Shown: positions 28,348-57,856 of the stretch, piece by piece
How positions within the stretch are numbered: the first letter of the stretch is position 1
Layout of the letters: each line of letters begins with the position of its first letter
NCBI GenBank assembly: GCA_039648995.1
Contig: JBBWZH010000215.1
Coordinates: forward strand, 1 to 61,066
Direction: 5' to 3'
Source: Mycobacteriales bacterium
GTDB lineage: Bacteria > Actinomycetota > Actinomycetes > Mycobacteriales > CADCTP01
Length of the DNA: 61,066 nucleotides
Translations under genes and position numbers: made by a program
The notes under the pieces: model-generated
Databases searched by the model: none
Told to the model about the DNA's origin: nothing
What the model saw: the letters and a program-made list of their open reading frames with translations, nothing else

Positions 28348-29574
28348 ATGACGGACGTAAGGCCTGAGGGCGACGATCTTGCCGCGACATCGGCCGACCG
28401 CCGGAACGCACGGCTCTATCTGATCGGTCTCGGGCTCTCACTCGTCGGGGACAGCGCACTCAGCCTTGTTTCCGGGATCTGGGTCAAGTCCGACACCGGC
28501 AGCAGTGCCGCTGCCGGCCTCGTACAGGCGTGCATCTACGTTCCCTCGCTGCTCGCTCCGCTGGCCGGGCTGCTCGTCGATCGGATGCCGCGGCAGCGCT
28601 TTCTTGTCGTCGTGAACGTGTGCTCGGCATTCGTCGTGGCGGTACTCCTGCTGGTCACCGATCCGGGCCGGATCTGGCTCATCTACCCGGTGATGGTCGG
28701 GTACGGCGTCTCGCTGGTCCTGGTCGGGCCGGCCGAGAGCGCGCTGTTCGCGCACATGCTGCCGACCGCCGTCCGGCGGCGGGTGAACGGCTGGCGGCTC
28801 GGGATGCAGGAGATGGGCCGACTGGTCGCGCCGCTGCTGGGCGCCGCGCTCTTCACCTCGCTCGGTGGGCCGGCGGTGGCGGCCCTGGACGCCGTCACGT
28901 TCGTCGCCGCCGCTGCGGCGACGGCGCTGCTCAGGCCGCCGAGCGAACCCCCACCGCCGCCGAGACAGCGATGGCGGACCGAGATGGGCGCCGGGATCGC
29001 TCATACCCGGGCGACACCGGCGCTGGCCCGCATCGTCGGGACCGCGGCCATGATCATGGCCGTGTCCGGCCTCGGCGTGAGCGCGCAGTACAGCCTGGTC
29101 GAGGGCCTGGGAAAGTCACCCGGCTATTTGGGCGTGCTCACGGCCGTGCTCGGCGCCGGGTCCGTGGTCGCAAGCCTGGTGAGCTCTCGAATCATCGGGC
29201 GGCTCGGCCTGATTCCGGTCGAGCTGTGCGGGCTCGGCGCTTACGCGGTCGGCAGCCTGCTGCGGGTGTTCGACAGCAGCGCGGCGGCGATAGCCGGGTC
29301 CTTCGTCCTGGGCTTCGCGCTGCCGTGGGTGTTCCTGGTCACCCTCAGCGCGGCTCAGGATATGACGCCGACCTGGCTGCAGGGCCGGGTGAACGCCGTC
29401 GTCATCTTCCTCCTGTTCGCGCCGCAGGCACCGCTGCAGGCTGTTGGCGCGTTCCTCATCGCGCACTTCTCCTATCAGGCCATTTACGCGGCGTCGGCGT
29501 CGGCGGCGGCCGTCCTCATGGTGTACACCTATATCGCCGATTCCCGGATCAAGCGCGTGCGAAACGACAGTTGA
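28348..29574 (+). CDS. Major facilitator superfamily exporter (DHA3/macrolide-efflux-like)
   Basis: 408 aa with about 12 hydrophobic segments; motif A-like AGLLVDRMPRQRFL; N-terminal LSLVGD; C-terminal QDMTPTWLQGRVNA. Confidence 0.9.
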   Translation: MTDVRPEGDDLAATSADRRNARLYLIGLGLSLVGDSALSLVSGIWVKSDTGSSAAAGLVQACIYVPSLLAPLAGLLVDRMPRQRFLVVVNVCSAFVVAVLLLVTDPGRIWLIYPVMVGYGVSLVLVGPAESALFAHMLPTAVRRRVNGWRLGMQEMGRLVAPLLGAALFTSLGGPAVAALDAVTFVAAAAATALLRPPSEPPPPPRQRWRTEMGAGIAHTRATPALARIVGTAAMIMAVSGLGVSAQYSLVEGLGKSPGYLGVLTAVLGAGSVVASLVSSRIIGRLGLIPVELCGLGAYAVGSLLRVFDSSAAAIAGSFVLGFALPWVFLVTLSAAQDMTPTWLQGRVNAVVIFLLFAPQAPLQAVGAFLIAHFSYQAIYAASASAAAVLMVYTYIADSRIKRVRNDS

Positions 29575-29715
29575 CCGCGTCTGGTGCCCATCGCCGACCC
29601 CGTCTAGCATGGCCGTGTTGCCCGCCGGATTCATAGCCGCGGTCACCCGCCCCGGTGCCATTCGCGGCAACTTGTCGTCGTTTCTCGCGACCGTACAGGT
29701 AATTGAGGGAGCGGC

Positions 29716-30912
29716 ATGAGCCAGGTACGACTTCCCGGTTTCGTCGACGCCAACCGCTCGGGCGATCTCGACCCGTACCCCAACTTCGCCTGGCTTCGGG
29801 CCACGACGCCGATCACCCAGGTACCCGGGTCGGCGGGCGAGGGAAACGTCTGGTTCGTGACGTCGTACGCGCTGGCCCGGGCGTGCCTGGCGGACCGCCG
29901 GCTGAGCCACGAACGCACGAACGCGAAGAATGCCGACGGCCTGTCGCTGGACCACGGCGACATGCTGGGTTCGGACCCGCCGGACCACTCACGGCTGCGG
30001 CACCTGGTTAGCCCCGTGCTCAGCTCGGGCGCGATCGAGAAACTTCGCCCAATGGTGGCGCGGGTGTGCTCCGAACTCATCGACTCCTTCGCCGCGAAGG
30101 GCAGCGCCGAGCTCGTCGGGGAGTTCGCGTGGCCGATCCCGTGGGCGGTGATCCACGACTTCTACGGCATCCCCGAGTCCGAGCGGATGGAGGTGAGCCG
30201 CTGCATCGACCGGTTCCTCGTGGCCGGCTACATCGAGCAGCCGCTCGGCGGCGGCCCGGCGAGCGAGGAGCTGGGCGAGTACGTCCACCGCCTGATCGCG
30301 TACAAGCGGACGCACCGCGGGGACGACCTCACGACGCGGATGATCGAGGGGCTCGAGCGCGGCGTGGTGCGCAGCGAAGCGGAGCTCGAAGGCATGCTCT
30401 ACGTGCTCCTCGGCGCCGGCCAGGTGAGCACCGGGCCGCTCATTGCCGCGGCGGCGCTGCGGCTGCTGGAGAATCGGTCCGAACTGGCGCAGCTCATGGC
30501 CGGTCGGCGGAGTTGGCGGGCCGCCGCGGAGGAGTCGTTGCGCTTCGACTCGCCCGTGCAGACCTCGGTCCGCCGGTACGCGTTGGTGGACATGAAGCTG
30601 GGCGACGCCGAGATCGCGGAGGGCGACACTGTCGTCGTCTCGCTGGCCGCCGCGAACCGGGACACCGACTGGTTCGACGACGCCGAGCGGTTCGTGGTCC
30701 GTACACGCCGGTCGAACCTCGCGTTCGGCCACGGAATCCACCTCTGCATCGGGGCGCCGCTCGCCCGGCTGGAGGGTGAGGTGGCGTTGCGGCTGCTGTT
30801 CTCCCGGCTGCCGGGTCTCCGGCTCGCGATCGCACCGCAGGACGTCGCCTGGATCCTCGGTCCGAAGCTGCGCAGCCCTCGCGAGGTCCCGGTGGTCTTC
30901 GACGCAGGCTGA
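29716..30912 (+). CDS. Cytochrome P450 (CYP107-like) with atypical I-helix
   Basis: GAGGGAG RBS; DPYP, DPPDHSRLR, ExxR (EESLR), heme motif FGHGIHLCIG; I-helix reads AGQVST instead of AGxET. Confidence 0.95.
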   Translation: MSQVRLPGFVDANRSGDLDPYPNFAWLRATTPITQVPGSAGEGNVWFVTSYALARACLADRRLSHERTNAKNADGLSLDHGDMLGSDPPDHSRLRHLVSPVLSSGAIEKLRPMVARVCSELIDSFAAKGSAELVGEFAWPIPWAVIHDFYGIPESERMEVSRCIDRFLVAGYIEQPLGGGPASEELGEYVHRLIAYKRTHRGDDLTTRMIEGLERGVVRSEAELEGMLYVLLGAGQVSTGPLIAAAALRLLENRSELAQLMAGRRSWRAAAEESLRFDSPVQTSVRRYALVDMKLGDAEIAEGDTVVVSLAAANRDTDWFDDAERFVVRTRRSNLAFGHGIHLCIGAPLARLEGEVALRLLFSRLPGLRLAIAPQDVAWILGPKLRSPREVPVVFDAG

Positions 30913-30938: not shown

Positions 30939-31592
30939 TCAGTCCCGGGTCGGCAGCCGGCGGATGGCGGCGGCGGTCTCCGCGTCCGCCGCGCGGCCGC
31001 GGTCGATCAGGCCGGTGCAGATCCGGTCCCGGGTGGCGGCGTCCTTCTCCTGGCTCAGCTTGAACATGCCGTCCGCGGCGAGGACCGACATGGCGAACGC
31101 CCCGACGCCGGGGAGGATCCGCCGGAAATACTCCAGCGACCGGTCCTGCGTCCAGCCGAGGCCGAACCGGCCCTCGAGGCGGCGCGCGGTCTCGCGCACC
31201 ACCTTGAGTGTCTCGTCGCCCGGCGCAAGGGGCTCGATGCTGACGCGGGCGTGCACGACGCTGAAGTCCCACGTCGGCGCCGCCGGCTGCACGCCGTACC
31301 AGGCGGGGGACACGTAGGCGCCTGGCCCGCTGAAGACGAGCGTGCCATGCGTCCCGCCGCGCAGCGCTGCCCAGTGCGGGTTGGCGCGGTTCATGTGGCC
31401 GAGCAGCCGGGCACCGACCAGCCCGGTAGGGCCGCCGCCGTCGTCCAGGTCTCCGGCGGCCGGAACGACGGGCACGTGCGTCGCCCACGGCTCGGCCGCG
31501 CCGTTGGTGGTGAGCAGGGCGAGCGGGTTGTCGAGGACGAGCGCGCGTGCCCACGCCGGGTCCGGCGGGCGGTACTGGCCGGGGACGAACAT
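30939..31592 (-). CDS. pzbB: Piperazate synthase (KtzT/PzbB-type heme N-N bond-forming enzyme, PaiB/FMN-binding fold)
   Basis: MFVP start, GHMNRANPHW (candidate heme-ligand His), YVSPAWY, APTWDF, FKLSQEK; directly downstream of an ornithine N-oxygenase. Confidence 0.9.
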   Translation of the reverse strand: MFVPGQYRPPDPAWARALVLDNPLALLTTNGAAEPWATHVPVVPAAGDLDDGGGPTGLVGARLLGHMNRANPHWAALRGGTHGTLVFSGPGAYVSPAWYGVQPAAPTWDFSVVHARVSIEPLAPGDETLKVVRETARRLEGRFGLGWTQDRSLEYFRRILPGVGAFAMSVLAADGMFKLSQEKDAATRDRICTGLIDRGRAADAETAAAIRRLPTRD

Positions 31593-31596: not shown

Positions 31597-32946
31597 TCAC
31601 CGCGCGTTCTGGCTCACCGGCAGGTCGATCATCGAGGTGAGGATCTCCCCGGCGCGGACGGCCACGTTGGACAGCAGCGACGAGGACAGCCCGTGGGTGT
31701 GCTCGCTGCCGCCCTGGACGTAGATGCCCGCGTGCACCGCGTCGGTCGTCAGCACCTGGTAGGACCGGGAGATCCGCAGCCGGCCGTTCGCGTCGCGCAG
31801 GCACGCGCCGGCGATGTCTGGCAGCAGGTCCGTGGGGTCCATCTGGGTGTAGCCGGTGGCGAGCACGACCAGATCCACCGCCAGGCGCTCGCAGGCGAAC
31901 GTCTGGCGGGAGGCGAGGTCGAGCACCGGGCGGCCGTCGTCGGCGGCGGTGATGCCGGTCAGCTGCCGCATCGGGTACATGAGCAGCCGCGGCCGCCCCG
32001 CCACCAGTTCTCCATACACGCGCTTGTAGAGGTCGGAGATCAGGTGCTCGTCCACGACCGAGTAGTTCGTGTTGGCGTGGTACTGGAAGATCTGCCGGCG
32101 ACCCTCCGCGGTCGCCGTGTAGTAGTCGTCGACCGCGTCGGGGTCGAAGACCCTGTTCGCGAACGGCGTGTTGTCCGCCGCGCTGTAGCCGTACCGCTGC
32201 ATCACGCAGTACACGGTCGCGGTGTCGAACCGCTCGTGCAGGTACGCCGTGGCCTCGGCCGCGCTCTGACCGGACCCGACGACCGCGATCGATCGCGGCG
32301 GCGCGGCGCGGAGGCTGCCGACCTTCGACATCAGCTCCGAGGTGTGCCAGACGCGGTCGGACAGCGCCGTGCCGACCGGCATCCGGGGTGTCATGCCGGT
32401 TGCCAGCACCACGTTGTGGGCCCGCAGCGGCGCCGCGGCGGCCCGGGTGGTGGCGTGCCGGCTCTCGATCTCGAACATCGTCACCGTGCCCTCGGCGTTC
32501 ACCGGGCGGATCCGGGTCACCTCCCGGTCGTAGCCGACGAGGTTCCTGACCCCGTCGGCCACCCAGGTGAGGTAGTCGTGGAACTCGGATCGGGTGGGGA
32601 AGAAGTCCTTCTGGTTGATGAAGTGCGCCAGCCGGCCGTGCTCGAAGAGGTAGTTGACGAACGTGAACCTGCTCCGGGGATCGCGCATGGTGGCCAGGTC
32701 CTTGAGGAACGCGACCTGCATGGTGGCCCCCTCGATCATCATCCCGAGGTGCCAGCCGAACCGCGGCTGGCGCTCGAGGAAGGCCGCCCGGATCAACGGG
32801 CCGCCCACCTGCTCGTTGCGCTCCTGGACGGCAACCGCGAGCGAGAGGTTGGAGGGTCCGAACCCGATGCCGACGAAATCCAGCAGGTCGTGCCGCGGAT
32901 GATCGTCATCGGCGAACCTGGCGGCACTCCGACGTACCGACTCCAT
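31597..32946 (-). CDS. pzbA: L-ornithine N5-monooxygenase (KtzI/PzbA, IucD/PvdA family)
   Basis: FAD motif GIGFGPSNL, FGWHLGMM, FLKDLATMRDP, NADPH motif GSGQSAAE, DLVVLATGY, THGLSSSLLSN. Confidence 0.95.
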   Translation of the reverse strand: MESVRRSAARFADDDHPRHDLLDFVGIGFGPSNLSLAVAVQERNEQVGGPLIRAAFLERQPRFGWHLGMMIEGATMQVAFLKDLATMRDPRSRFTFVNYLFEHGRLAHFINQKDFFPTRSEFHDYLTWVADGVRNLVGYDREVTRIRPVNAEGTVTMFEIESRHATTRAAAAPLRAHNVVLATGMTPRMPVGTALSDRVWHTSELMSKVGSLRAAPPRSIAVVGSGQSAAEATAYLHERFDTATVYCVMQRYGYSAADNTPFANRVFDPDAVDDYYTATAEGRRQIFQYHANTNYSVVDEHLISDLYKRVYGELVAGRPRLLMYPMRQLTGITAADDGRPVLDLASRQTFACERLAVDLVVLATGYTQMDPTDLLPDIAGACLRDANGRLRISRSYQVLTTDAVHAGIYVQGGSEHTHGLSSSLLSNVAVRAGEILTSMIDLPVSQNAR

Positions 32947-32997: not shown

Positions 32998-33957
32998 CTA
33001 GCGCGCCGGCCGGCCGTCGAGGGCGTCGGCGGCGGCCTCGGCGACGTCGGCGGCCGACGGCAGGACGACCGCCTGCAGCGTCGGGCTCGCCGGGATGGGG
33101 CATGGGTCGCTCGCCACCACGCGCAGGCCGACGGGTTCCACCGCCCCGCTGGTGAGCAGGTGCAGGCCGAGGTCGTTCATCAGCGAGCAGGCACCGATCG
33201 CCTCGTCGACGAGCACGGCCGCCCGGGTGGTGGACGCCAGCAGCGCCACACCGTCGCGGTCGAGCGGAGCGGCCGTGCGCAAGTCGACCACCTGGGCGCT
33301 GATGCCGCGCTGGGCCAACTGGTCCGCGGCGGTGAGGCAGTCGGTGACGGTGTTGCCGATGCCGACGAGCGTGACGTCCGTGCCCTCCCGCACGCGGTGC
33401 GCCAGGCCGAAGGGGATCGGGTCGAAGGTGGGCTCGATGTCGGTGGCCGTGTCCCACCCGGGGAAGAAGATCCGCGACGTCTCCAGGATCACGACCGGAT
33501 CGGGGTGGTTGAGTGCGGTCGCCATGAGGCCGGCGGCGCTGTTGACGGAGGAGGGCACCGCGACGACCAGTCCGGGCACCTGACACAGCATCGAGTGCGG
33601 GACGTGCTCGTGCTGCGATCCGGAGTTCTCCCCGCACCGCGTGATGGCCAGGACGAGCAGCGGTACGGAGTACTGACCGTCGCTGAGGTACCGCCACTTC
33701 GTGGCCTGGTTCACGAGCGGGTCCATCGCGGTGAAGAGGAAGGCGGCCCGGGCGAGGTCGACGACCGTCCGCCGACCCGTCATGGCCAGGCCCACGCCGA
33801 TGCCCATCATCGCGTTCTCGGAGATCGGCATGCACACCGAGCGGTCTGCGCCGTACGTGCGCTCCCACCCGGCCACCCGGGTCGTCGCGAGGTAGGTCAG
33901 CTCGGGCTGCTCGTCCATGGCGCGTTCGAAGACGACGTTGATCGGGTGCTGGCTCAT
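32998..33957 (-). CDS. ThDP-dependent 2-oxoacid/acetoin dehydrogenase E1 beta-like subunit (transketolase C-terminal fold)
   Basis: ATG 33957 overlaps the alpha-subunit stop (ATGA); MPISENAMMGIGVGLAMTG, DPLVNQATKWRYLSDGQ, SGSQH, REGTDVTLV, VVDLRTAAPLD. Confidence 0.9.
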   Translation of the reverse strand: MSQHPINVVFERAMDEQPELTYLATTRVAGWERTYGADRSVCMPISENAMMGIGVGLAMTGRRTVVDLARAAFLFTAMDPLVNQATKWRYLSDGQYSVPLLVLAITRCGENSGSQHEHVPHSMLCQVPGLVVAVPSSVNSAAGLMATALNHPDPVVILETSRIFFPGWDTATDIEPTFDPIPFGLAHRVREGTDVTLVGIGNTVTDCLTAADQLAQRGISAQVVDLRTAAPLDRDGVALLASTTRAAVLVDEAIGACSLMNDLGLHLLTSGAVEPVGLRVVASDPCPIPASPTLQAVVLPSAADVAEAAADALDGRPAR

Positions 33958-34931
33958 CGCACATCGCTCCCGGCGAGGGCGGCGCCGAACGGCGCGACGG
34001 TCACGCTGGACAGCGCCGTGTCGACCGGGGTCGGCGGCGCCGCCAGCGCGCCGCGGACCGCCTCGGCCACCGCCGCCGAGGCCGCGTCGAGCACGGGTTG
34101 CGGGTCGGTGCCCAGCGACCGCAGGCGCTGCCCCGCACGGAGGAGGGGGTCCTTCGCCTTCCACCGCTCGACCTGGTCCGCCGGCCGGTACGCGGCGGGG
34201 ACGAAGTTCCGCAGCTGGGAGTGAAAGTCGCGCAGGTAGGTCCGGGCCACCAGCGCGGCCGGTCCGCCGCCGGCACGGCACACGTCCAGGACGCCGGACA
34301 TGGCCGAGGCGACCTGCTCGACGTCGTTGCCGTCCGCCTCGGTCACCTCGACGCCGAGGCCGCGAAGCAGCTCCGCGGGTTTCATCGGCATCACCGCGGG
34401 GCTCGGGTTGCGGTCCTGCCAGCCGTTGTCCTCGCAGACCAGCGCCAGCGGCAGGCCCTTCTGCCGGGCGATCATGAGGGTCTCGTACGCGACGCCCGCG
34501 CCCAGCGCGCCGTCACCGCAGAAGACCACCACCGCCCGACCGCTGCCCGCGGCCCGCTCCCCGAACGCCACGCCGGCCGCGATCGGAAGCTGCGACCCCA
34601 CGATCGAACTGGCGAGCAGGAACCGGCGGTCGCGGTCGCAGATCTGCATCGACCCGCTCTTGCCGCCGCAGATGCCGCCCGCGCGGTCCAGCATCTCGCG
34701 CAGGAGCGGGCCGATCGGGCTTCCGCTGGCGATCGCGTGGCCGTGGCACCGGTAGTACCCGACGACCCACTCGTCGGGTCGGCGCCCGGCGACGGCCCCG
34801 ACCGCGACCGCCTCGTGACCGGTGTACGGGTGGACGACCCCGGGCACCTCACCGCGTGCGGCCACCTCGAGCAGGGCCTCCTCGAAGGCCCGGATCAGGC
34901 ACATCTGCGCGTACAGCTCGGACAGGTCCAT
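33954..34931 (-). CDS. ThDP-dependent 2-oxoacid/acetoin dehydrogenase E1 alpha-like subunit
   Basis: IRAFEE, HPYTGHEA, YRCHGH, GGKSGSM, ThDP motif GDGA...CEDN, DGNDV, WKAKDPL. Confidence 0.92.
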   Translation of the reverse strand: MDLSELYAQMCLIRAFEEALLEVAARGEVPGVVHPYTGHEAVAVGAVAGRRPDEWVVGYYRCHGHAIASGSPIGPLLREMLDRAGGICGGKSGSMQICDRDRRFLLASSIVGSQLPIAAGVAFGERAAGSGRAVVVFCGDGALGAGVAYETLMIARQKGLPLALVCEDNGWQDRNPSPAVMPMKPAELLRGLGVEVTEADGNDVEQVASAMSGVLDVCRAGGGPAALVARTYLRDFHSQLRNFVPAAYRPADQVERWKAKDPLLRAGQRLRSLGTDPQPVLDAASAAVAEAVRGALAAPPTPVDTALSSVTVAPFGAALAGSDVR

Positions 34932-34940
34932 GTGTCCCCT

Positions 34941-37900: not shown

Positions 37901-38087
37901 CCCGCAGGGCGTCGTGCCGCGCGACCACCGCGTCCAGCGCCCGCGCGAGCGCGGCCACGTCGAGCGGCCCGCGGACCCGGTAGCCGCGGACGATCAGGTA
38001 CGCCTGGTCCTCCGCGAGCTGCTCGACCAGCCACAGTCGGTGCTGCTCCGGCGACAGCGGTACGGCGCGAGCCGCCCGGAGGCTCAC
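34941..38087 (-). CDS. NRPS module C-A(Leu predicted)-T
   Basis: 3' part of ORF 34941..39464; GTG 38087 overlaps the upstream stop (GTGA). C HHIVVDG; [22 protein letters not shown]; specificity code read by eye DAWFLGHVVK (Leu-type); T GGNSL. Confidence 0.93.
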
Positions 38088-39919: not shown

Positions 39920-39948
39920 GAACCCTCCCGAGTGGATGGCTGAGCTGG

Positions 39949-44766: not shown

Positions 44767-44843
44767 GTGTGGCAACGGGTTGACCGGCCGGCACAACGAG
44801 GACCTCCGGCCGGCTGGAATCCACCGCAATCAAGCAATATCAG

Positions 44844-44881
44844 AGCCCTGGAGGTGCGCACCAGTGAGATTCTCCAGGGCT
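44844..44881. promoter_or_regulatory. Perfect 10-bp inverted repeat with 18-nt spacer; candidate operator
   Basis: AGCCCTGGAG (44844-44853) and CTCCAGGGCT (44872-44881), midway between the divergent C-domain and mbtH genes. Confidence 0.45.
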
Positions 44882-44999
44882 GTTGTATGGGGCCTCCGGG
44901 AGGTTGCGGAAATGGCGCTCGCCGGTGACGATGCTCGCCGGGGCCGAGAAAAGGCGGGCTTGATTTGTCCGTGTGCCGCGTCCGGCGGAGGTGAGTGGC

Positions 45000-45221
45000 G
45001 TGGAAACCGTGGATGAGAGCCAGGTCGACGACTCGTTCGAGGTAGTCGTCAATCACGAAGAGCAGTATTCGGTGTGGCCGTCCGATCGGGAGCCACCCGC
45101 GGGTTGGCACCTCGAGGGGACCCGTGGCAGCCGGGATCAGTGCCTGGCACACATCGACACGGTGTGGTTGGACATCACCCCCAAGAGCGTCCGCGAACGG
45201 CTCGCCGCCGAGCGTGACTGA
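45000..45221 (+). CDS. mbtH: MbtH-like protein
   Basis: GGAGG RBS then GTG 45000; VVVNHEEQYSVWP, PPAGW, CLAHIDTVWLDITPKS with the three conserved Trp. Confidence 0.95.
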   Translation: METVDESQVDDSFEVVVNHEEQYSVWPSDREPPAGWHLEGTRGSRDQCLAHIDTVWLDITPKSVRERLAAERD

Positions 45222-49900: not shown

Positions 49901-51433
49901 GCCCAGCGTCTCGGCGAACAGGTCGGCGATGTCCTGAACGGTCGCCGCGTCGGTCGCCGCGTCGGCCGCCGCCGGCCCGGTCGCGCGCGGCGGGCTCGCC
50001 GGTCGCTCCCGGCTCGCCGTGGCCGGCGCGGACCGGGGCTGCGCCGGGAACACCGGCAGGTCCGACAGTCGCGTGCCGGGGGCGTCGACGATGAGCGCCA
50101 GCGTCTCGCGCAGGTGCGCGCCGAGTGCCGCGACCGCGGAGCGCGCGAACCGCTCCTCCGGGTAGGCGATGTGCAGCCGGGTTCCGGTGCCGGTCATGAT
50201 CGCGTTGAGGGCGAGCTGGAACTTGGCCTGCTGCGGTGCCGGGTCGAGCGGCTCGACCCGCAGCGGGCCGATGGTGCGGCGGTCCCCGTCGGCGTGGTGC
50301 TGCAGCTGGCAGCTCACGTCGAGCAACGGCACGCGTCCGGTGCCGCGGGCCGGCGCGACGCTTCGCACGATCCACTCCAGCGGGATGTCGGCGTGCGCGT
50401 AGGCCTCGAGAAGGCTGTCCCGGACCGCCAGCAGGAACTCGGTCGCGGTCAGGTCGGTGTCCACGTTGATCCGGACCGGCACCATCGTGACGAACAGGCC
50501 CACGAGGTCCTGCACCGCCATCGCGGTTCGGCCGTCGACGGGTACGCCGATGACGAGGTCGCTGGCCGCGTGTGGGTCCAGCTGCGCGAGGACGGCGGCC
50601 CAGGCCGCGAACGCCAGCATGAACGGTGTCGCGCTGACCGAGGACGCGACGATCCGCAGCCGCTCGGTCAGGTCCGCGGGCAGTTCGACGGTGACGGCCG
50701 CGTCGACGCCCCACCGGTCGCCGTCGACCGGTGCCAGCAGGCCGGGCTGGAACCGGTGGTCGGCACCGTCGAGCTTCGCCGTCCAGTACGCGAGGGACCG
50801 GTCGAGCTCACCGGCGGCCACCCGCTGCTGCTGGTACAACGCGACGTCGGCGTACTGCACCGCCAGTGCGGGAGCGTCGGCTTCGACACCGCCGGTCGCA
50901 CGCCGGTAGCCGTGATCCAGGTCGCGCAGCAGCACGGCACCGGATACGGCGTCCGAGACGAGGTGGTGGGTGCTGATCACGACGATCGCCTCGGTGGCCG
51001 CCAGCGCGAGGACGGCGCACCGCACCGGCGGCGTCCTGGTGAGCTCGTACGGCTCCAGCTGGAGTCGCCGGACCAGCGCCCGGGCCGCGGTTTCCGCGCC
51101 CTCCGGCGCCGCGCTCAGGTCGTGGATCGTGACCGGTACGTCGGCCGCCGGGTGGATGCGCTGGTAGGGCTCGCCGGCCGCGTCCGCGGGGAAGCTCGTG
51201 CGCAGGGCCTCGTGCCGCTCGATGAGGGCGGCGAGCGCGCGCCCCAGCGCGGGGACGTCGACATCACCGCGCAGCCGTACCGCGAGCAGCGTGTGGTACG
51301 ACGTATCGGAGACGTCCAGCTGGTGCATGATCCACAGACCGCGTTGCGGCAGCGACAGCGGCACGCGGACGGCGAGCGGCCGGGGGTGCGTGGTCAGCGC
51401 GACGCGAGGGCGTCTCGGTCTGGTCGGTGGCAC
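46976..51433 (-). CDS. Non-canonical NRPS C-T-R(thioester reductase)-A(Asn predicted)
   Basis: One 1485-aa frame: C HHLVSDAVS; T GGHSL; R TGVTGLLG, NVIGT, HYVST, GYVRSKWVAE (YxxxK); C-terminal A YTSGSTGTPKG, NEYGPTE, NGKVD; code DLTKVGEVGK (Asn-type). Confidence 0.93.
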   Translation of the reverse strand: MPPTRPRRPRVALTTHPRPLAVRVPLSLPQRGLWIMHQLDVSDTSYHTLLAVRLRGDVDVPALGRALAALIERHEALRTSFPADAAGEPYQRIHPAADVPVTIHDLSAAPEGAETAARALVRRLQLEPYELTRTPPVRCAVLALAATEAIVVISTHHLVSDAVSGAVLLRDLDHGYRRATGGVEADAPALAVQYADVALYQQQRVAAGELDRSLAYWTAKLDGADHRFQPGLLAPVDGDRWGVDAAVTVELPADLTERLRIVASSVSATPFMLAFAAWAAVLAQLDPHAASDLVIGVPVDGRTAMAVQDLVGLFVTMVPVRINVDTDLTATEFLLAVRDSLLEAYAHADIPLEWIVRSVAPARGTGRVPLLDVSCQLQHHADGDRRTIGPLRVEPLDPAPQQAKFQLALNAIMTGTGTRLHIAYPEERFARSAVAALGAHLRETLALIVDAPGTRLSDLPVFPAQPRSAPATASRERPASPPRATGPAAADAATDAATVQDIADLFAETLGRAGVAATDDFFAIGGHSLLALHVMRRLRDRVGEHLPMNLLFTHPTPRALASALAAGDAPVRAAGGPDVRHDVGLRLGPLPARVAVPPAAALITGVTGLLGAHLLAEVLERTSITPWCLIRAGDPDTARQRAESALRGIGRWRPGWHRWIRVLVGDLSRPMLGLPEREYADAAAAVDLVFHVAASTHLLDSYASLRGPNVIGTREVLWFATTGSLKPVHYVSTVSTMRGDASSPPALPEDWHTDPALLPDDGYVRSKWVAEETVRQAGRLGVPATVYRPSRICGGAGSGPPPAADAFWNFVVACIEIGAEPTGDGWSGFSDNLVPADFLATVLVRTALAGGADGATFNLVNAASTRLAEVLDVARAAGHRIDRVPGDAWQRSLERAVADPQRRSRAQESALLLTQTVLARGPGHSRPVDTARADAALAALGIAGPRVDAVLLASHLAALADSGRLASHAARGEAAGPADAGAAPATLPELWDRAVRTWPRRPAAIDAHETVTFAELDRRAAAIAAGLAARGVSAGDRVGIRLPHDVALLATLLAVVRLGAAFVPVDHRHDDERSRGTLRRAGVRLTVAGAPAGDDATVSPAVLLRAGHDLPAPLAAAGDVAYVLYTSGSTGTPKGVVVPHTALARYLAWVRAEYCGAGGAGAPLYSSVAFDLTITSLFGPLVSGGAVHLVDPRNGIVRVAEMLCEGSTFDFVKLTPTHLRILLDQLRGRRMAGHVAALVIGGEALPADLVQAWREVSPRTVVHNEYGPTEATVGCCVHRLDPDAAVPRPFPIGTPIPGVRLRVVDGAGREAAAGELGELAIGGGSLAWGYDADPPETARRFVPDAGAAAAGARSYRTGDLVRRDADGTYYYHGRTDNQVKIRGHRVETDEVAAALRGLDGVDEAVVRSVGSGDGAGLVGYVTGATLSASDADGLRARLRRLVPDYMVPTDLLVVGAVPTTINGKVDLAALPAPPRLTSGSGVTGR

Positions 51434-51482
51434 CGTGTCTCCCTGGTCGGCATGCGGGTTCCGGTGGACAGGGCAGCGGCGA

Positions 51483-52736
51483 TCAGCGCGACGTGAAGCG
51501 CACCGGCATCCGCCCGAACCCCCAGAGGAACGTGTCCGGTAGACGCAGGTACGGCCCGGCGAGGTCGATCCTGCCGACGTGCGTACGCAGCTGGTCGATC
51601 AGCACGGCCAGCTCCAGCCGCGCCAACGCCGCCCCCAGGCAGTAGTGCGCGCCGAGGCCGAACGTCAGGTGCCGGTTGGGGGTGCGCCCGAGCCGGAGCA
51701 CGTCCGGCGCCTCGAAGAGGTCCTCGTCGCGGTTCGCCGACGGCGTCCAGAGCGTGACGACCTCGCCGGGATCGATCGTGACGCCGCGGATCTCGACGCT
51801 GCCGGTGCAGGTCCGCAGCACGTGCAGGCCGGGGGTCGTCCAGCGGAGGATCTCCTCGACGGCGGGCTCGAGCGCCACCTCGGACGCCCGCAGCGCCGCC
51901 CACTCGGCGCCGAACTCGCTGAACGCGAGGACGGCGCCCGCGGACGCGTGCCGGGTGGTCTCGTTCCCGGCCGTCACGATGCCGCCGCAGTTGAGCATCA
52001 CGTCCTCGTCGCTGAGCCGACGACCGTCGACCAGGCCGGACACCAGAGCGCTGATGACGTCGTCGCCCGGGTCCGCCCGCCGTGCCGGGATCAGCTCCAG
52101 GTAGTACAGGTAGATCTCGGCGTTGCCGGCCTCGCGCTCCGCCCTGGTGGCCGGCCGCCCGTCGTCGAGCTCCCAGCCGAACGCGCTGCTGGTGAGGCGG
52201 CTCATCCAGGCCCAGTCCTGCCGCGGCACACCCATCAGGTCGCAGACGACCGTCGTCGGTATCCGGGCCGCGATCTCGCTGACGAAGTCGAACTCGCCCG
52301 CGTCGACGCGCTCGCGCACGAGGCCGCCGATCGTGGCGGTGAGGCTGTCCCGCAGCCGCGCCATCATCCGCGGCCCGAACACCGGCGCGAGTATGTGCCG
52401 CAGCTTCGTGTGCAGGGGCGGGTCGGTGACGACGAGCATGCGCCCGCTGGCCGCGAGCGCGGCGTCGTCCTGGTGCCCGAGCAGCATCCCGGTCGTGGAG
52501 GTGAAGTCGCGGGTGTTCCGCAGGACGGCGACCTGGTCCTGGTACTTCGTCAGGGCCCAGAACCCGGACGGCAGCTGCGCTGTCGGCGGGTTGCGGAAGA
52601 CCGGCGCGTTGCGGCGCAGCCAGGCCCACACCGGCAGCGGGTCACCGGTCGCGTAGAGGTCCGGATCGGCCAGGTCGACCGGGCGACCGTCAACGACGAG
52701 TCGCCGGTTGTCGTCGCGGGTGATGTCCGCGGCCAC
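51483..52736 (-). CDS. Cytochrome P450, carrier-protein-dependent amino-acid beta-hydroxylase type (OxyD/NikQ/NovI/P450sky-like)
   Basis: GTG 52736 with GGGAGG RBS; DLADPDLY, GFWALTKY, GRMLVVTDPP, LNCGGIVTAGNETTRHA, EEILR, FGLGAHYCLG; lies between two NRPS genes. Confidence 0.9.
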   Translation of the reverse strand: MAADITRDDNRRLVVDGRPVDLADPDLYATGDPLPVWAWLRRNAPVFRNPPTAQLPSGFWALTKYQDQVAVLRNTRDFTSTTGMLLGHQDDAALAASGRMLVVTDPPLHTKLRHILAPVFGPRMMARLRDSLTATIGGLVRERVDAGEFDFVSEIAARIPTTVVCDLMGVPRQDWAWMSRLTSSAFGWELDDGRPATRAEREAGNAEIYLYYLELIPARRADPGDDVISALVSGLVDGRRLSDEDVMLNCGGIVTAGNETTRHASAGAVLAFSEFGAEWAALRASEVALEPAVEEILRWTTPGLHVLRTCTGSVEIRGVTIDPGEVVTLWTPSANRDEDLFEAPDVLRLGRTPNRHLTFGLGAHYCLGAALARLELAVLIDQLRTHVGRIDLAGPYLRLPDTFLWGFGRMPVRFTSR

Positions 52737-52737
52737 C

Positions 52738-55700
52738 TCAGCGCCTCCCTCGGGCCGGCACCGCGGCGGCGTGCAGCCGGTCGACCGCCTCCGACAGCCG
52801 GATCCCGGGATCGGCGCCGCAGCCAGCGACCAGGTCCGTGAACATGCCGGCGAGCCGCCGGGCACCGGGGTCGTCGAACACGTTGCACGCGTACTCGAAG
52901 CCGCACTCGGCGCGGTCGTCCCGGAGCCCGACCTCGAGCGTGAGGTCGAACTTCGAGGTCCCGTTATGCCAGCGGCGTTCGGTCGAGGCGAGGCCGGCCC
53001 CGACCGGGCGGGACAGGTCCTTGTCGTCGTGCAGCACGATCGCGGCCTGGAACAGCGGGTTGCCGGTGCCCGCCCGCGCCGGGTTCACCGCCTGCACGAC
53101 CCGCTCGAAGGGCACCCACCGGTAGCTGTCCGCCTCGATGATGTCCACCCGCGTCCGCCGCACCTGTTCCAGGAAGGTCGGGTCGCCCGCGCCGTCGCTG
53201 CGCATCGCGTTCATGTTCACGTAGTAGCCGACCGACCCCTCGAACTCGACGCGCTCGCGGAGGCTTACCGGGACGCCGATCACGGGGCTCCGGGCCGTGG
53301 TCACCGCGCCCAGCAGCCAGGCGTACGCCGCGAAGAACGGCATGAACGCGGTGGCGCCGCAGGCGGTTGCCACGGCCCGCATCGCGTCCAGCTCGGGACG
53401 CCGGACGACGGCGTGCAGCCGCACGCCGGAGCCGTCCGACCGTGGCACCGGGGACGCCGGCGCGCGCCAGCGCGCCGGCTCGACGCCGCGCAGGCGCTCC
53501 GCCCAGAACCGCAGGCCGTCGCTCAGCTGGTGCTCGACCCGGTGCCGTTCGAGCGCGGCGAACTGCCGGTAGGCGTCATCGGGCCCGGTCAGCGCGCCGC
53601 CCGCGTAGCGCGTGCAGGTGTCGTTCCACAGCACCCGCCACGACCACTCGTCGCACACCGCGTGGTGGGCCACGAGGACGAGCAGGTGGCGGTCCGGGCC
53701 GCGGGCGATCAGCGCGGCCCGCAGCAGCGGCGGGCGGGCGACGTCGAACGGCTCGTTGACGATGTCGCGAACCGCGCGGTCGGCGGCCCCGTCGTCCAGG
53801 CCCGACAGGTCGAGCCGGCGGAGGCCGACCCGGACGTCGTCGGCCGGCGTGTTGGTCACCTGCCCGTTCCGGTACCGCAGCGCGGACCGGAGCATGGTCT
53901 GCCGGCCGGCCGCCTCGCTCAGCGACCGCGCCAGCCGGGCCCGGTCCAGGACGCCGGTCAGCTCGAGCACGTGGTAGTCGTTGTAGTCGGCACGCCCGCG
54001 GTCGACCTGGTTCAGCCACCAGAGCGCCCGCTGGCCCGCGGTCGCCGCGAACTCCGCCGAGGCGGCCCCTGCCGGGGCCGCTGCCGCCGCAGCCGGGGCG
54101 GGCGCGGCGGCGACACCGTCCGCCGCGGTCGTGCTGGCCCGCTCCTGCTCCGCCACGGCGCGGTCGATCGCCGCGGCCAGCGCCGCGAGCGTCCGCTCCT
54201 GGAACACGACCTTCAGCGGGATGCGGAGCCCGAAGCCGGCGCGGATCCGCGCCACCACCTGCGCCACCGTGACCGAGTGCGCGCCCAGCTCGAAGATGTC
54301 GTCGTTCGCCCGCAACCGGTCGCGACCCAGGACGTCGGACCATATCGCGGCCACGCGCCGCTCGGTCGGTGACAACGCCGGCGGCTCGGGCGGCTCGGGC
54401 GGCGGCGGCTCGGGCCGGTCGCCGAGCAGCGCCGCGACATCGGTCTTCCCGCCCGGCGTCGTCGGCAGCTCATCGACGAGGTGAATCTCGGCCGGGACCA
54501 TGAACGCGGGCAGCCGCTGCTCGAGGAACTCGCGGATGTCGGCCGTCGTGAGCGGCATCGCGCCCAGCTGGCGCGGGCTCGCCGGTCGGGGCCGCGTACC
54601 GGCCGCGCGCGCGTAGACGTAGTGGATCGACTGGTCCCGACCGACCGACCAGTCCTCCTCGACGCCGACGTGGAAGCCGTGTCGCCGCAGCAGCTCGGTC
54701 GCCCGGCCGAGCGCCCCGTCCACGTCCTCGAGTTCGAGCGCTACCTGCCGGACCCGCCGCCAGTCGACCGGGTCGACGCCCGCCAGCACGGCAAGCTCGG
54801 AGCGCTCGACGTTGATCTTCAGCAGGTGGACCCGGTCGATCTGGTGCTCGGCCAGCAGGCCGGAGAGCGCGCGGACCCGGACCGTCCGGGAGTGTGCCGT
54901 GAGGCGGTCCGCGGCCAGCTCACGCAGCTCGTCGAGCGACTCCGCGACGCGGCTGTCGCGGGTGCTCGCCCGCTCGAGGAACGACGCCACCAGCGCCCGG
55001 TCCCGGGCCGGGTTGGCGTGCAGCCCGGAGAGGTAGGAGAACTCGTCGTAGCTGCGGAGCTCCGCGTCCCCGTCGCCGGCGCCGACCGCCAGCTCGTGCA
55101 GCTCGGCGCGGGTTCCGTGCAGCTCCGCGTTGGCCCGGAAGACGTCCGCCGCCCGCGGGTTCGGCTCGAACGCCACGTACCGGTCGAGACGCGCGCGGGA
55201 GTGTGCGAACAGCATGAACATGCCGACGTTCGCCCCGACATCGACGACGGTGTCGCCGTCGGCGAGCGCCAGCCCGTGCCGCAGGTAGGCGTTCCGCACG
55301 AAGATGTCCTCGAAGAGGAAGCGGGTCTCGTGCTCGTTGAGGCTCGCCGGGGCGAGGCGGTCGCCGCAGGCCACCCGCGGGTAGCCGCGGAACGCCTGCC
55401 GCCGCTCGGGGATCGCGACCACGAAGGCGACCAGCGTCGTGTCACCGCCGGTGCGCGACCGACCGGCGCCGGCCGCGCCGGCCACGCCGGGATGCGCGGC
55501 CAGCGTCGCCGCGACCTCCTCCGGCTCGACCCGGTACCCGCGGATCTTCACCTGGTCGTCGACCCGGCCGACGATCGTGACCGCGTCACCGCTCGTCCTG
55601 CGCGCGAGGTCGCCGGTGCGGTAGAGCCGGGCGCCCACCGCCCCGGACAAGTGGTCCGGTACGAACGCGGCAGCGGTCGCGCGGGCGTCCCCGGCATAGC

Positions 55701-56802
55701 CGTACGCCAGACCGACACCGCCGAGGCAGAGCTCCCCGACCCGGCCCACCGGAACCTCGCCGAGGTCGGCGTCCAGCACGTAGGCCCGCATCCCGTCGAT
55801 CGCGCGACCCACGCTCATCGGCCGGCTGTCATCTCCGGTCAGCTCGTCGACACCGGCGGTCGCGTTGACGGAGGCCTCGGTGGGCCCGTACTGGTTGGTC
55901 AGGCGCGCGGGCAACCTCGCGAGCAGCCGCCGCGCGTCGCGCTCGTACAGGATCTGGCCGCCGGACCACACGTGCCGCAGCGATCGACACGCGCCGAAGG
56001 ACGGCTCGTCCGCGAGAGCCCGCAGCATCGGCGGCACCGAGTGCACGACGGTGACACCGTTCGCCGTGATCGCGGCGCAGATCTCGGCGGGATCCCGCTC
56101 GCTGCCCGCGGGGGCGACGACGACCGTGCCGCCCGCGCCGAGCGCCGAGTAGATCTCACCGAGCGAGGCGTCGAAGGAGAACGGCGCCTTCCACAGCACC
56201 CGGTCGCGCCCGTCCAGCCGGTGGAACCTGATGCCCCACACGATCCGGTTCCAGAGCCCGGCGTGCGGTACGAGAACAGCCTTGGGTCGACCGGTCGTGC
56301 CGGACGTGAAGAACACGACCGCTGGATCGCTGTCGGCCGCGCCGGCCGCGCCCCTCGGGTGCGATCCGCTCCCGCCGGCCACCGGCAGGCACGTCACTCC
56401 GGTCGGGCCCAGCCGAGGCGCGAGGCCGTCGCCGGTGAGGACCGTGCCGACCCGGGCGATGTCGATCATCGAACGGAGGCGCCCGAGCGGGTACTCCGGG
56501 TCGAGGGGAACACAGATGCCGCCGGCCGTCCAGGTCGCCAGCTGCGCGACGATGGCGTCGACCGATCGGTGCGCGCACACGCCAATGCGCTCGCCGCGGC
56601 AGTCACCGAGCGAGCCCGCCAGCGTACGTACCAGTCCGAGCAGCTCGCCGTACGTCACGTCCCGGGCGGTGTCCCGGACGGCGACCCGTTCCGGATGCCG
56701 ACGCGCGACACCGGTCACCACCGCGAGCAGCGTACGGGCGGATCTCGCCTCAGGCGCCACGGTCATCCCTTCTGCAGGACGCTCAGCACCGACCGCGGTC
56801 AC
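52738..56802 (-). CDS. NRPS A(interrupted by FkbM-type methyltransferase)-T-C
   Basis: Start GTG 56802 or ATG 56766; A FTSGTTGRPK, NQYGPTE, YRTGD, GRVDDQVKIRG (A8); then MT NEHETRFLFEDIF..VVDVGANVG..AFEP..LLKINVE; then A9/A10 LPAFMVP..GGKTD; T GAHSV; C HHAVCDEWS. Code by eye DAGHWGQVNK. Confidence 0.93.
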   Translation of the reverse strand: MTAVGAERPAEGMTVAPEARSARTLLAVVTGVARRHPERVAVRDTARDVTYGELLGLVRTLAGSLGDCRGERIGVCAHRSVDAIVAQLATWTAGGICVPLDPEYPLGRLRSMIDIARVGTVLTGDGLAPRLGPTGVTCLPVAGGSGSHPRGAAGAADSDPAVVFFTSGTTGRPKAVLVPHAGLWNRIVWGIRFHRLDGRDRVLWKAPFSFDASLGEIYSALGAGGTVVVAPAGSERDPAEICAAITANGVTVVHSVPPMLRALADEPSFGACRSLRHVWSGGQILYERDARRLLARLPARLTNQYGPTEASVNATAGVDELTGDDSRPMSVGRAIDGMRAYVLDADLGEVPVGRVGELCLGGVGLAYGYAGDARATAAAFVPDHLSGAVGARLYRTGDLARRTSGDAVTIVGRVDDQVKIRGYRVEPEEVAATLAAHPGVAGAAGAGRSRTGGDTTLVAFVVAIPERRQAFRGYPRVACGDRLAPASLNEHETRFLFEDIFVRNAYLRHGLALADGDTVVDVGANVGMFMLFAHSRARLDRYVAFEPNPRAADVFRANAELHGTRAELHELAVGAGDGDAELRSYDEFSYLSGLHANPARDRALVASFLERASTRDSRVAESLDELRELAADRLTAHSRTVRVRALSGLLAEHQIDRVHLLKINVERSELAVLAGVDPVDWRRVRQVALELEDVDGALGRATELLRRHGFHVGVEEDWSVGRDQSIHYVYARAAGTRPRPASPRQLGAMPLTTADIREFLEQRLPAFMVPAEIHLVDELPTTPGGKTDVAALLGDRPEPPPPEPPEPPALSPTERRVAAIWSDVLGRDRLRANDDIFELGAHSVTVAQVVARIRAGFGLRIPLKVVFQERTLAALAAAIDRAVAEQERASTTAADGVAAAPAPAAAAAAPAGAASAEFAATAGQRALWWLNQVDRGRADYNDYHVLELTGVLDRARLARSLSEAAGRQTMLRSALRYRNGQVTNTPADDVRVGLRRLDLSGLDDGAADRAVRDIVNEPFDVARPPLLRAALIARGPDRHLLVLVAHHAVCDEWSWRVLWNDTCTRYAGGALTGPDDAYRQFAALERHRVEHQLSDGLRFWAERLRGVEPARWRAPASPVPRSDGSGVRLHAVVRRPELDAMRAVATACGATAFMPFFAAYAWLLGAVTTARSPVIGVPVSLRERVEFEGSVGYYVNMNAMRSDGAGDPTFLEQVRRTRVDIIEADSYRWVPFERVVQAVNPARAGTGNPLFQAAIVLHDDKDLSRPVGAGLASTERRWHNGTSKFDLTLEVGLRDDRAECGFEYACNVFDDPGARRLAGMFTDLVAGCGADPGIRLSEAVDRLHAAAVPARGRR

Positions 56803-56833
56803 TGAGGCCGACCAGGATCGGTTGCGGACGCGG

Positions 56834-57856
56834 TCAGTCGCCGTCCGAGTCGGCGGTGCGCATCGCCGCGCTGCCGCCGCGCCGCTCCAGCCGCTCGGCC
56901 AGCTCCTGCCACGCCTCCGCGCAGTCGCGGGCGAGGTCGACGATCAGCTCCACGCAGTGCGCCGGCACGGCGTCGGGCACCCAGGTGTTGTCGTCGACGC
57001 CGATCGCGTGGTGCAGCAGCCAGCGCAGCAGTTGCCGGCCGCTCTCGGAGAACCGGAGCGTCGGGTCGTCACGCAGCCGGCCGAGAATTGTCAGCCGCGT
57101 CCTCGGGTCGCGCGAGGCCGGCGCGGCTCTGTCCTGGTGCGGATCCGCGACCTCCAGCCGGGCGCCCGCTAGCCGGCGCGCCGGCCGCCGGACGACCGGA
57201 TCCTCACCGCGTTGCAGCCGTTCCCGCACATCCCGGGCGGTGCCCACGGCGATGCCGCAGGACCGTGCGATCTCGCGCAGCGACGCGCGCGGCCGGGCGC
57301 GGATCATGTCGGCCGCGCGCCGCCGGCCCGGCGCCGAGTTGAGCGGGCGCACCCGGCCGTCCAGCCCCAGCCGGGCGTCCAACTGTCCGGCTTCGACAGT
57401 TGAACGCCGGACCGCGCCGACCGTGTCGGGAGCGAGGCCCGTCGATGCCGCGACCCGCCGATCCGACCAATCCGGACGGTGCCGCAGGATCCGCGCCGCG
57501 GCGGCATGCCGGTCAGCGATCGACAGGGGCATCCCGTGCTTGATATTGGCCTCGACGGCCAACACGAACGCTGCCTCTTCGTCGCCCTTGAAGAACACCA
57601 CCGGAATTTGTGCCTCGCCACGTAGCTCGGCGGCCCGGAGTCGGTGCACTCCGTCAATGACACACATTGTCGAATGGTGCACGGTAATGGGCGGCAGTGG
57701 AGCGCCGCACTCGGCTAGCGCCATCGTGTGTTCGGTGTTCTCGCCGTTCAGACGCGGCGAATCTGCTACCTTGATAGCGTTGATCTCAACGTATACGGCA
57801 TCGGCTGTCCGCATGTCGTCGTCAGTTGCGATCCGGCCGTTTTCCTCATCCGACAT
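56834..57856 (-). CDS. StrR-family pathway-specific transcriptional activator (ParB-like N-terminus plus HTH)
   Basis: DSPRLNGE, LPPITVH, IDGVHRLRAA, ANIKHGMPLS, PDWSDRRVA, GLDGRVRP, ASLREIAR..GTARDVR: the pattern of StrR/NovG/Bbr. Confidence 0.92.
   Translation of the reverse strand: MSDEENGRIATDDDMRTADAVYVEINAIKVADSPRLNGENTEHTMALAECGAPLPPITVHHSTMCVIDGVHRLRAAELRGEAQIPVVFFKGDEEAAFVLAVEANIKHGMPLSIADRHAAAARILRHRPDWSDRRVAASTGLAPDTVGAVRRSTVEAGQLDARLGLDGRVRPLNSAPGRRRAADMIRARPRASLREIARSCGIAVGTARDVRERLQRGEDPVVRRPARRLAGARLEVADPHQDRAAPASRDPRTRLTILGRLRDDPTLRFSESGRQLLRWLLHHAIGVDDNTWVPDAVPAHCVELIVDLARDCAEAWQELAERLERRGGSAAMRTADSDGD

Follow-up and report, generated by a model that had tools for sequence, protein, structure and literature searches.

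Two described non-ribosomal peptide synthetase (NRPS) clusters serve as analogues for the locus analysed here. The demiguisin cluster (dmg/dem) of Amycolatopsis directs the formation of a linear hexapeptide by seven NRPS genes, which together encode six adenylation (A) domains and in part consist of a single such domain; the cluster contains a KtzI/KtzT pair, a cytochrome P450, a Leu module beside modules of the Pro/piperazate (Piz) type, and a two-subunit 'decarboxylase DmgAA9a/b' proposed for a proline-analogue building block, and its authors located it in two Amycolatopsis strains only (PMC11446937, PMC13676617). The rotihibin cluster (rth) of Streptomyces scabies ends in an Asn-specific module whose reductase domain yields a C-terminal L-asparaginol, takes Thr from a stand-alone protein of the A-T type (T, carrier domain), and includes an MbtH protein and a transposase at its border (PMC8552735). 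The subject of this study is a contig of a Mycobacteriales bacterium (JBBWZH010000215.1, 61,066 bp; hereafter the window, meaning the whole stretch of DNA analysed) on which NRPS genes lie together with a KtzI/KtzT pair and the two subunits of an E1-type enzyme dependent on thiamine diphosphate (ThDP). With moderate confidence, we read this locus as a functional, self-contained and dissociated six-module NRPS that would release a linear hexapeptide reductively. An earlier interpretation made from the letters alone (the original prediction) had contrasted it with piperazate peptides made by large multimodular NRPSs, a generalization that the demiguisin line, with its seven genes and stand-alone A domains, has made outdated.

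The split synthetase and its release module

The window is an entire contig, with a GC content of 69-81%, of a genome bin (G000) that comprises 790 contigs and is 78% complete with 4% contamination; the public sequencing runs containing its DNA carry the label soil metagenome and come from one study only. Coding frames were assigned by third-position GC (GC3 frame plot). Positions 30939-57856 form a compact block of 16 genes which holds every gene type listed in the original prediction and is organized in three transcription units, namely regulator-g1-P450b-g3, MbtH-g4 and g5-g6-g7-g8-g9-E1 alpha-E1 beta-KtzI-KtzT (Table 1). Pfam and motif scans of the eight NRPS genes at 34.9-56.8 kb reproduced the predicted inventory of six A, six T, five condensation (C) domains and one thioester reductase (R) domain. 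No thioesterase (TE) family was found by Pfam among the window proteins, and the motifs that we take to mark epimerization (E) domains are absent from all five condensation-type domains, each of which begins with a C1-type motif. The catalytic motifs are intact throughout: HHxxxD is present in 5/5 C domains, the carrier serine in 6/6 T domains and the A10 lysine in 6/6 A domains, the core motifs A3, A8 and A10 were found in the A domains by motif scan, and the R domain keeps TGVTGLLG and YVRSK.

The gene splits are genuine sequence features, since each junction has its own start codon downstream of a purine-rich run resembling a ribosome-binding site (RBS) and contigs built from public runs cross the bridged junctions free of gaps. 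The likely start of g4 lies near 45256 and that of g6 is a GTG at 43192 preceded by GAGGAGG, while stop and start codons overlap by 4 nt at g8/g9 (GTGA, 38084-38087) and at E1 alpha/E1 beta (ATGA, 33954-33957). Logan contigs from one run (X1) cover 34001-38246, 41000-43576, 43585-47645 and 47616-54000 with 0 gaps and an even depth of about 18; this run is possibly the source sample, which makes the independence of its contigs weak. A short piece from another sample (X3) spans the g8/g9 junction at 38084-38087. Among the run-contig pieces listed, none crosses the g7/g8 junction near 39949 and none spans the whole stretch. Rows with small indels, at 38808, 42362, 44889, 45788, 47345 and 48484, fall off the junctions and in NRPS motifs conserved across organisms. 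The intact motifs, the RBS-bearing junctions, the gap-free contigs and an orthologue of the release module with 64% identity uphold the original view that the cluster is not decaying and forms one hexamodular line working mostly in trans.

The most distinctive gene of this line is g3, in which Pfam places C at residues 24-460, T at 501-564, the reductase domain NAD_binding_4 at 603-841 and A at 992-1330, so that A lies behind R and the canonical order C-A-T-R, with R last, does not apply. A protein of 1470 aa (P0002) is a collinear full-length orthologue with 61-64% identity, the same Pfam order and the same Asn-type code. An exhaustive search for R running into A among 1.84 billion representatives returned, in the best 150 matches inspected, four in which R and A match in one stretch, namely the window's own cluster, P0362 (47% identity), P0363 (43%) and P0404 (34%), with the other 146 matching R or A alone. 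The last three proteins measure 1431-1465 aa, within the 1431-1485 aa of all C-T-R-A proteins examined, which share the same order of motifs, and the code DLTK(V/I)GEVGK is present in four of five; in P0404 the first three code positions were not caught by the search pattern. The T-R part of g3 has as its best named relative, at 45% identity, a Streptomyces sp. protein of the ordinary C-A-T-R order, the order also found in the closest named proteins to g3 as a whole (Streptomyces spp., Lentzea).

Wider searches gave a similar picture. With the R-A stretch as query, none of the 400 genomes sampled from this class gave an uninterrupted match of R into A, and 19/401 genomes, G000 included, match the query at E<=1e-40. 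A scan of genome contigs for C-T-R-A yielded at least 598 pattern matches, from which 272 encoded relatives and 79 loci kept were generic NRPSs only (30-46% identity); all of the 41 relative genomes searched gave generic NRPS matches, the best non-self one at 43% and confined to the A part, and an alignment scan of metagenome contigs for the R-to-A linker returned two weak loci (30% and 27%). Judged from these alignments, the C-T-R-A arrangement is real and rare, and defines a small family of release modules, conserved and of the Asn type, with A placed after R. As read from its code, which corresponds to published Asn codes, the A domain of g3 would serve the T domain that precedes R, as in asparaginol release of the rotihibin type. 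A separate observation comes from another genome of the class (G411:C1:4244657-4245985), in which the match to the R-A query continues across a TGA to query residue 462; here a gene ending in R may be followed directly by one starting with A, that is, a split R-A arrangement.

With domains numbered after their genes, covalent tethering places C1 behind T1, C6 behind T6, C9 before A9-T9 and C3 before T3-R, and leaves C5 free, while T4 and T8 lie within A-T didomains and A7 has no carrier. Combined with an assumed collinearity of the long operon, these tethers give one consistent order in which a single chain would use each domain once, passing from T1 over T4, T6, T8, T9 and T3 to R. The A domain of g1, with its embedded methyltransferase (MT), would load T1; C1 would transfer the starter to the residue held by A4-T4, and C5 would pass the chain on to T6, which would be loaded in trans with Thr by A7. 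Extension would continue through C6 with the Pro-like substrate of A8-T8, through C9 with the Leu of A9-T9, and through C3 on T3, which A3, located behind R in the same protein, would charge with Asn before R acts. The specificity codes read by eye in the original prediction (Thr, Leu, Asn, Pro-like and two unassigned) were recovered unchanged from a GrsA-anchored alignment. The predicted product is thus a linear X1(methylated)-X2-Thr-(Pro/Pro-analogue or piperazate)-Leu-Asn, released by R with a C-terminal aldehyde or alcohol. Release by reduction from one hexamodular line, as originally proposed, agrees with the position of R directly after T3, with its two conserved motifs and with the missing TE. 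By analogy, the alcohol is at least as likely as the aldehyde, since the reductase-bearing Asn module of rotihibin produces L-asparaginol.

Modification of the starter may involve two further activities. The MT of g1 (Methyltransf_21, 59.1 bits) is inserted between the core motifs A8 and A9 of its A domain, and P450b appears from its best structural matches to belong with the P450s that act on amino acids bound to a carrier; 4l0e/4pwv probably represent P450sky and 3mgx probably OxyD, both hydroxylases of such substrates. P450b would probably beta-hydroxylate a carrier-bound residue, possibly the T1-bound starter, which the FkbM-type MT would then O-methylate; the position of the P450b gene between g1 and g3 and that of the MT inside A1 suggest a starter modified in this sequence. 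The O-methylated, beta-hydroxylated product of the original prediction is therefore compatible with both enzymes as found, and stays at the level of a proposal. Domain content, intactness and the conservation of C-T-R-A are direct results, as is its probable co-occurrence with E1 alpha and KtzT; what we infer from these features is the module order, the substrates, how far reduction proceeds, what P450b, MT and E1 do, and whether piperazate enters this peptide.

Piperazate supply and the E1 pair

Sequence comparison clearly groups the KtzT-like protein with piperazate synthases: the score is 212.9 bits against the piperazate synthase 9ebk versus 134.6 against the dehydratase NohD, and the protein retains the residues aligned to T107 and K178 of PipS, a Thr/Lys pair with a catalytic role (PMC12576811). 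Its gene adjoins that of the KtzI-like hydroxylase with a gap of 4 nt, whereas the NohD locus is without a hydroxylase. Together, KtzI and KtzT would make piperazate from ornithine. KtzT occurs as a single copy in the assembly, on the window's contig, and the only other KtzI-like match is 33% identical. In a complete genome of the same genus (G001), a KtzT-like gene interrupted by one in-frame TGA (G001:C1:4637731-4638375; L121) is only 49% identical; with nearby KtzI-like and NRPS matches at 4.60-4.62 Mb it makes up a different piperazate locus, possibly broken.

In the E1 pair, the alpha subunit has the ThDP motif GDG-X27-N, and the beta subunit, which is intact and whose frame differs from the open reading frame originally listed, keeps the PISE motif including its glutamate. 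Both are distant from the E1s of primary metabolism: E1 alpha reaches only 97 bits against human pyruvate dehydrogenase (PDH) E1 alpha, and the best PDB match of E1 beta (1um9_B) scores 132 bits. Orthologues of E1 alpha were found at 85%, 75% (P0124) and 62% (P0130) identity and of KtzT at 74% (P0244) and 56% (P0247). A longest contig of 31,604 bp is given for each of P0124, P0244 and the C-T-R-A orthologue P0002, and one of 32,207 bp for both P0130 and P0247. Since the first value is shared by all three orthologues, a cassette of C-T-R-A, E1 alpha and KtzT is probably conserved, and the data suggest a joint inheritance of E1 and KtzT in as many as three lineages. At the level of the class, E1 alpha at E<=1e-60 is confined to G000 (1/401 genomes).

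More distant E1 relatives (56-60% identity for alpha, about 52% for beta) occur in 8/251 sampled Micromonosporaceae genomes. In six of these (L108-L113) the pair lies with a B12-binding radical SAM enzyme, a 261-aa protein, a major facilitator superfamily (MFS) transporter and nearby P450s, in a cassette that has no E2 or E3 and, within 10 kb on either side, no NRPS and no KtzI/T. It looks like an undescribed small-molecule pathway that uses the same divergent clade of E1; with its different context it was rejected as a guide to the function of the pair in the window.

In the window, the most likely reaction of the E1 pair is a decarboxylation or carboligation with ThDP as cofactor, which would either help to supply building blocks or act on the aldehyde after its release. 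We prefer the first of these, in which the pair would make or modify a building block, with carboligation on the released aldehyde as the alternative. A more specific version, which we regard as speculative and rather doubtful, is that the cassette of E1 alpha/beta, KtzI and KtzT makes an undescribed ornithine- or hydrazine-derived, proline-like block for A8, or that the ThDP enzyme joins an acyl anion derived from a 2-oxoacid to the peptidyl-asparaginal freed by C-T-R-A(Asn). If true, either version would give a peptide scaffold with chemistry unseen in the piperazate or peptide-aldehyde families.

A number of points weigh against the reading of the locus as a complete line with a piperazate-type residue and an active E1 pair. 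The specificity codes were extracted by aligning the domains to anchor positions of GrsA rather than by a predictor, and the order of modules presumes that C5, T6-C6, A7, A8-T8 and C9-A9-T9 act collinearly within the long operon. Family scans found no E2, E3, lipoyl partner or obvious enzyme supplying the substrate of E1 among the proteins of the window, a negative that covers the window and not the rest of the genome. Placement of the sister genes on the same contig was deduced solely from the equal sizes of the longest contigs, and the source is a fragmented soil metagenome bin, 78% complete, from which partner genes may be absent. The published codes of Piz-activating A domains are DVFSVAAYAK, DVFSVGPYAK, DVFSVASYAK and DVFTVAAYAK, with the consensus DVFSVAxYAK, and 0/6 window A domains fit DVFSVAxYAK or DVFTVAAYAK. 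Of its ten code positions, the candidate A8 has only D, V and K, three in all, in common with the Piz consensus, and eight with the Pro code DVQLIAHVVK. It retains the Pro-type residues H322, V330 and V331, the His/Val/Val positions that had to be changed to convert an A domain from Pro to Piz; the Pro-specific GrsB1, in its wild-type form, accepted no more than 0.5% Piz when the two competed. A PDB search with A8 gave no clue to its specificity. Finally, a scan of the assembly with a profile of the six window A domains returned 41 matches, and an A domain on another contig of the bin, C232, has a near-canonical Piz code, which begins with the six residues D-V-F-S-V-A; in the same domain Tyr-Ala stands one residue out of register at 330/331.

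The presence of the supply pair does not imply its use: no window A domain has a Piz code, and incorporation of piperazate by the window line stays a hypothesis against which the codes as read speak. The 'piperazate-containing' product of the original prediction is accordingly not supported in that form, A8 being of the Pro type and the domain of DVFSVA type lying on C232 instead. The strongest competing explanation holds that KtzI and KtzT mainly or only feed the C232 synthetase in trans, and that the window line takes Pro or a Pro analogue at module 4 and no piperazate. It would account for C232, with two large NRPS genes, at least six A domains and the one DVFSVA-type code, for the missing Piz-type code in the window, and for the finding that KtzT and the only close KtzI of the assembly sit solely on the window's contig. 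Yet KtzI and KtzT are the final genes of the split-NRPS operon, separated by short gaps; the orthologues of KtzT and E1 alpha appear to accompany the C-T-R-A orthologue in another organism; and in an assembly of this completeness a second pair, belonging to C232, may lie in the part that is missing. Both uses could coexist. We regard this explanation as possible though unlikely on balance. In our preferred reading of a self-contained hexamodular line, piperazate may go to the C232 synthetase, to the window line or to both. The C232 locus itself (2-20041 of that contig; L114, L115 of G000) is a two-gene multimodular NRPS, the second gene of which exits the contig, with a beta-lactamase-family gene immediately upstream, followed by ADH, PTS and DeoR genes.

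Neighbouring genes and cluster boundaries

All the accessory genes named in the original prediction, the KtzI/KtzT pair, E1 alpha and beta, two P450s, MbtH, MFS and the putative NovG/StrR-type regulator, were found (Table 1). Their assignment to one cluster stands for the block at 30.9-57.9 kb and becomes doubtful at 28.3-30.9 kb, where the MFS gene and the PikC-like P450a may serve the neighbouring polyketide synthase (PKS); the transporter could act for either side, and membership of P450a in the NRPS cluster is doubtful. The regulator gives weak helix-turn-helix matches in Pfam and an Atlas score of 0.99 to NovG_helical clusters with a structural TM of 0.63; Atlas is a lead-level tool that provides neither alignment nor E-value, and the label 'StrR-type' is reasonable.

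Table 1. Features of the window, grouped as NRPS genes, supply and E1 genes, other accessory genes and neighbours
Feature	Position	Strand	Evidence and remarks
g1, A(FkbM-type MT)-T-C	52738-56802	-	Pfam; initiation module; HHAVCD, GAHSV; A1 code DAGSWGQVNK (unassigned)
g3, C-T-R-A, permuted terminal module	46976-51433	-	Pfam; A3 code DLTKVGEVGK (Asn)
g4, A-T, module 2	45124-46989	+	Pfam; GGSSL; A4 code DFWHLGQIDK (unassigned, Ser-like)
g5, stand-alone C	43242-44726	-	Condensation 242.3 bits; HHLVFD; first gene of the long operon
g6, T-C	41618-43261	-	Pfam; GGDSM, HHSVLDG
g7, stand-alone A	39949-41661	-	AMP-binding + AMP-binding_C, without PP-binding; A7 code DFWSVGMVHK (Thr-like)
g8, A-T, module 4	38084-39952	-	Pfam; GGHSL; A8 code DVL(L/A)ITHVVK (Pro-like); piperazate candidate of the original prediction
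g9, C-A-T, module 5	34941-38087	-	Pfam; HHIVVDG, GGNSL; A9 code DAWFLGHVVK (Leu-like)
E1 alpha, ThDP enzyme, 325 aa	33954-34931	-	Pfam E1_dh, 142.6 bits; GDG-X27-N ThDP motif
E1 beta, 319 aa	32998-33957	-	GC3 frame; Transket_pyr + Transketolase_C; intact
KtzI-like ornithine N5-hydroxylase	31597-32946	-	Pfam Lys_Orn_oxgnase, 350.7 bits; RBS and ATG at 32946
KtzT/PipS-like haem piperazate synthase	30939-31592	-	PF04299, 117.8 bits; last gene of the long operon
MbtH-like protein	44973-45221	+	Pfam MbtH, 71.4 bits
P450b	51483-52736	-	Pfam p450; best PDB matches 4l0e/4pwv (303 bits), 3mgx (279 bits)
Putative NovG/StrR-type regulator, 340 aa	56834-57856	-	Upstream of g1; Atlas and Pfam results in text
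P450a, macrolide-tailoring type	29716-30912	+	Pfam p450; best solved relatives PikC (234 bits), TamI, EryF
MFS transporter	28348-29574	+	Pfam MFS_1, 93.1 bits; cluster edge
PKS, type I modular	3-27102	-	Three genes: 15325-27102, ~3312-15320, 3-3311
IS30-family transposase	58408-59721	+	NCBIfam transpos_IS30, 183.6 bits
Open frame	60164-61066	+	GC3 up to 0.94; exits contig

The left part of the window is occupied by a modular PKS of type I, which comprises five modules or more with sets of dehydratase, enoylreductase and ketoreductase domains and whose last gene exits the contig at its left end. The first PKS gene starts with a docking domain and a ketosynthase, so that the loading part must lie elsewhere and an upstream partner is needed. 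In G001, DNA at 8.76-8.82 Mb is 68-73% identical to this PKS. The possibility that the NRPS and the PKS form one hybrid pathway, for example to a polyketide-peptide, draws on their separation by only 1.2 kb (27.1-28.3 kb) on one contig, on the PikC-like P450 and MFS genes between them, and on the partner that the first PKS gene requires. Set against this, five C domains for six T domains leave no spare or starter C domain for an acyl chain, R terminates the line, transcription of the PKS genes is directed away from the NRPS and off the end of the contig, GC and coding signal fall within the 1.2-kb gap, and the sister contig, at 31.6 kb, is roughly as long as the NRPS part by itself. We consider a hybrid pathway improbable, and retain the self-contained peptide line.

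At the right, the IS30-family transposase probably marks the edge of the cluster; a change of GC3 frame near 58750 suggests that this copy is possibly frameshifted, and the open frame beyond it had no match in a Pfam search. The IS30 element and the fragmented, slightly contaminated bin could be taken to indicate that the gene splits are artefacts or decay, through sequencing or assembly error, a chimeric contig or a dying cluster. This is very improbable given the intact motifs, the start codon and RBS at every junction and the even, gap-free coverage of the bridged junctions in independent contig builds described above; moreover, even if fused, the order C-T-C-A-A-T-C-A-T would be non-canonical, and C-T-R-A recurs at 64%, 47%, 43% and 34% identity.

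Comparison with described systems

That the cluster has already been characterised and went unrecognised is the least probable explanation of all, as identity to the best named relatives goes no higher than 63% (E1 alpha), with KtzT at 54% and the T-R portion of g3 at 45%, the genome-contig scan gave generic NRPSs among the matches listed, literature searches returned no matching cluster, and incarnatapeptins, demiguisins and rotihibins do not fit. The statement in the original prediction that no characterised cluster was recognised thus agrees with the named relatives in the protein searches and with the literature searches. In full-text literature, no paper was found that combines piperazate with a thioester reductase, nor one on E1 or thiamine with a peptide aldehyde or acyloin.

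Many bioactive compounds are known both among piperazate peptides and among peptide aldehydes or alcohols, and a line combining them would give a new scaffold. With the C-T-R-A(Asn) family one may ask how a T domain ahead of R is served by an A domain behind it, and a divergent E1 pair without E2/E3 that apparently travels with KtzI/KtzT hints at new ornithine/piperazate or peptide-aldehyde chemistry. A hexamodular line resolved into proteins acting in trans would also be a convenient system for the study of protein-protein recognition in NRPSs. As a counterweight, orphan NRPS clusters are very common in soil metagenomes and the source organism is uncultured.

Among the described systems, the incarnatapeptins were rejected as azinothricin-like depsipeptides. 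The kutzneride/azinothricin-type NRPSs (KtzH, HmtL, ArtF/G, Dpn) share with the window a piperazate supply of the KtzI/KtzT type, and in that of diperamycin (Dpn) an MT is likewise embedded in an A domain, giving O-methylserine derivatives; KtzH presumably does the same. They differ in being large and multimodular, in cyclisation by TE and in their Piz codes, DVF(S/T)V..YAK, of which there is none here, and the MT-bearing A domain of the window (A1) is without a Ser code, unlike theirs. The E1 components of the 2-oxoacid dehydrogenases (PDH, branched-chain 2-oxoacid dehydrogenase (BCKDH) and acetoin dehydrogenase) belong to the same two-subunit fold families and have the same ThDP motif as the pair described here, which matches them distantly and has no E2/E3 nearby.

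Rotihibin was rejected as the identity of the cluster and retained as an analogue for Asn-specific reductive release. RthA is pentamodular with the ordinary C-A-T-R order, and the product is a lipopeptide that involves a fatty acyl-AMP ligase, an acyl carrier protein and acyl-CoA dehydrogenases and contains 2,4-diaminobutyrate (Dab), citrulline and hydroxy-Asn; no KtzI/KtzT, E1 pair or MT is described for it (PMC8552735). In the window, family scans of the proteins found none of the rth-type lipoinitiation, Dab transaminase and Asn oxygenase families. Demiguisin was likewise rejected as the identity, on account of its release by TE and its different set of A domains, and is retained as the analogue for a dissociated hexapeptide line with a KtzI/KtzT pair. 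Its product has a Gly end, its A-domain codes are four of the Pro/Pip type, one Leu and one Gly, and it includes many precursor genes that are not present here; its KtzT (P0285) is only 56% identical. Seen beside these systems, the window holds an intact orphan cluster of a familiar kind, set apart by the full dissociation of its synthetase, by the C-T-R-A(Asn) release module and by an E1 pair linked to KtzI/KtzT.

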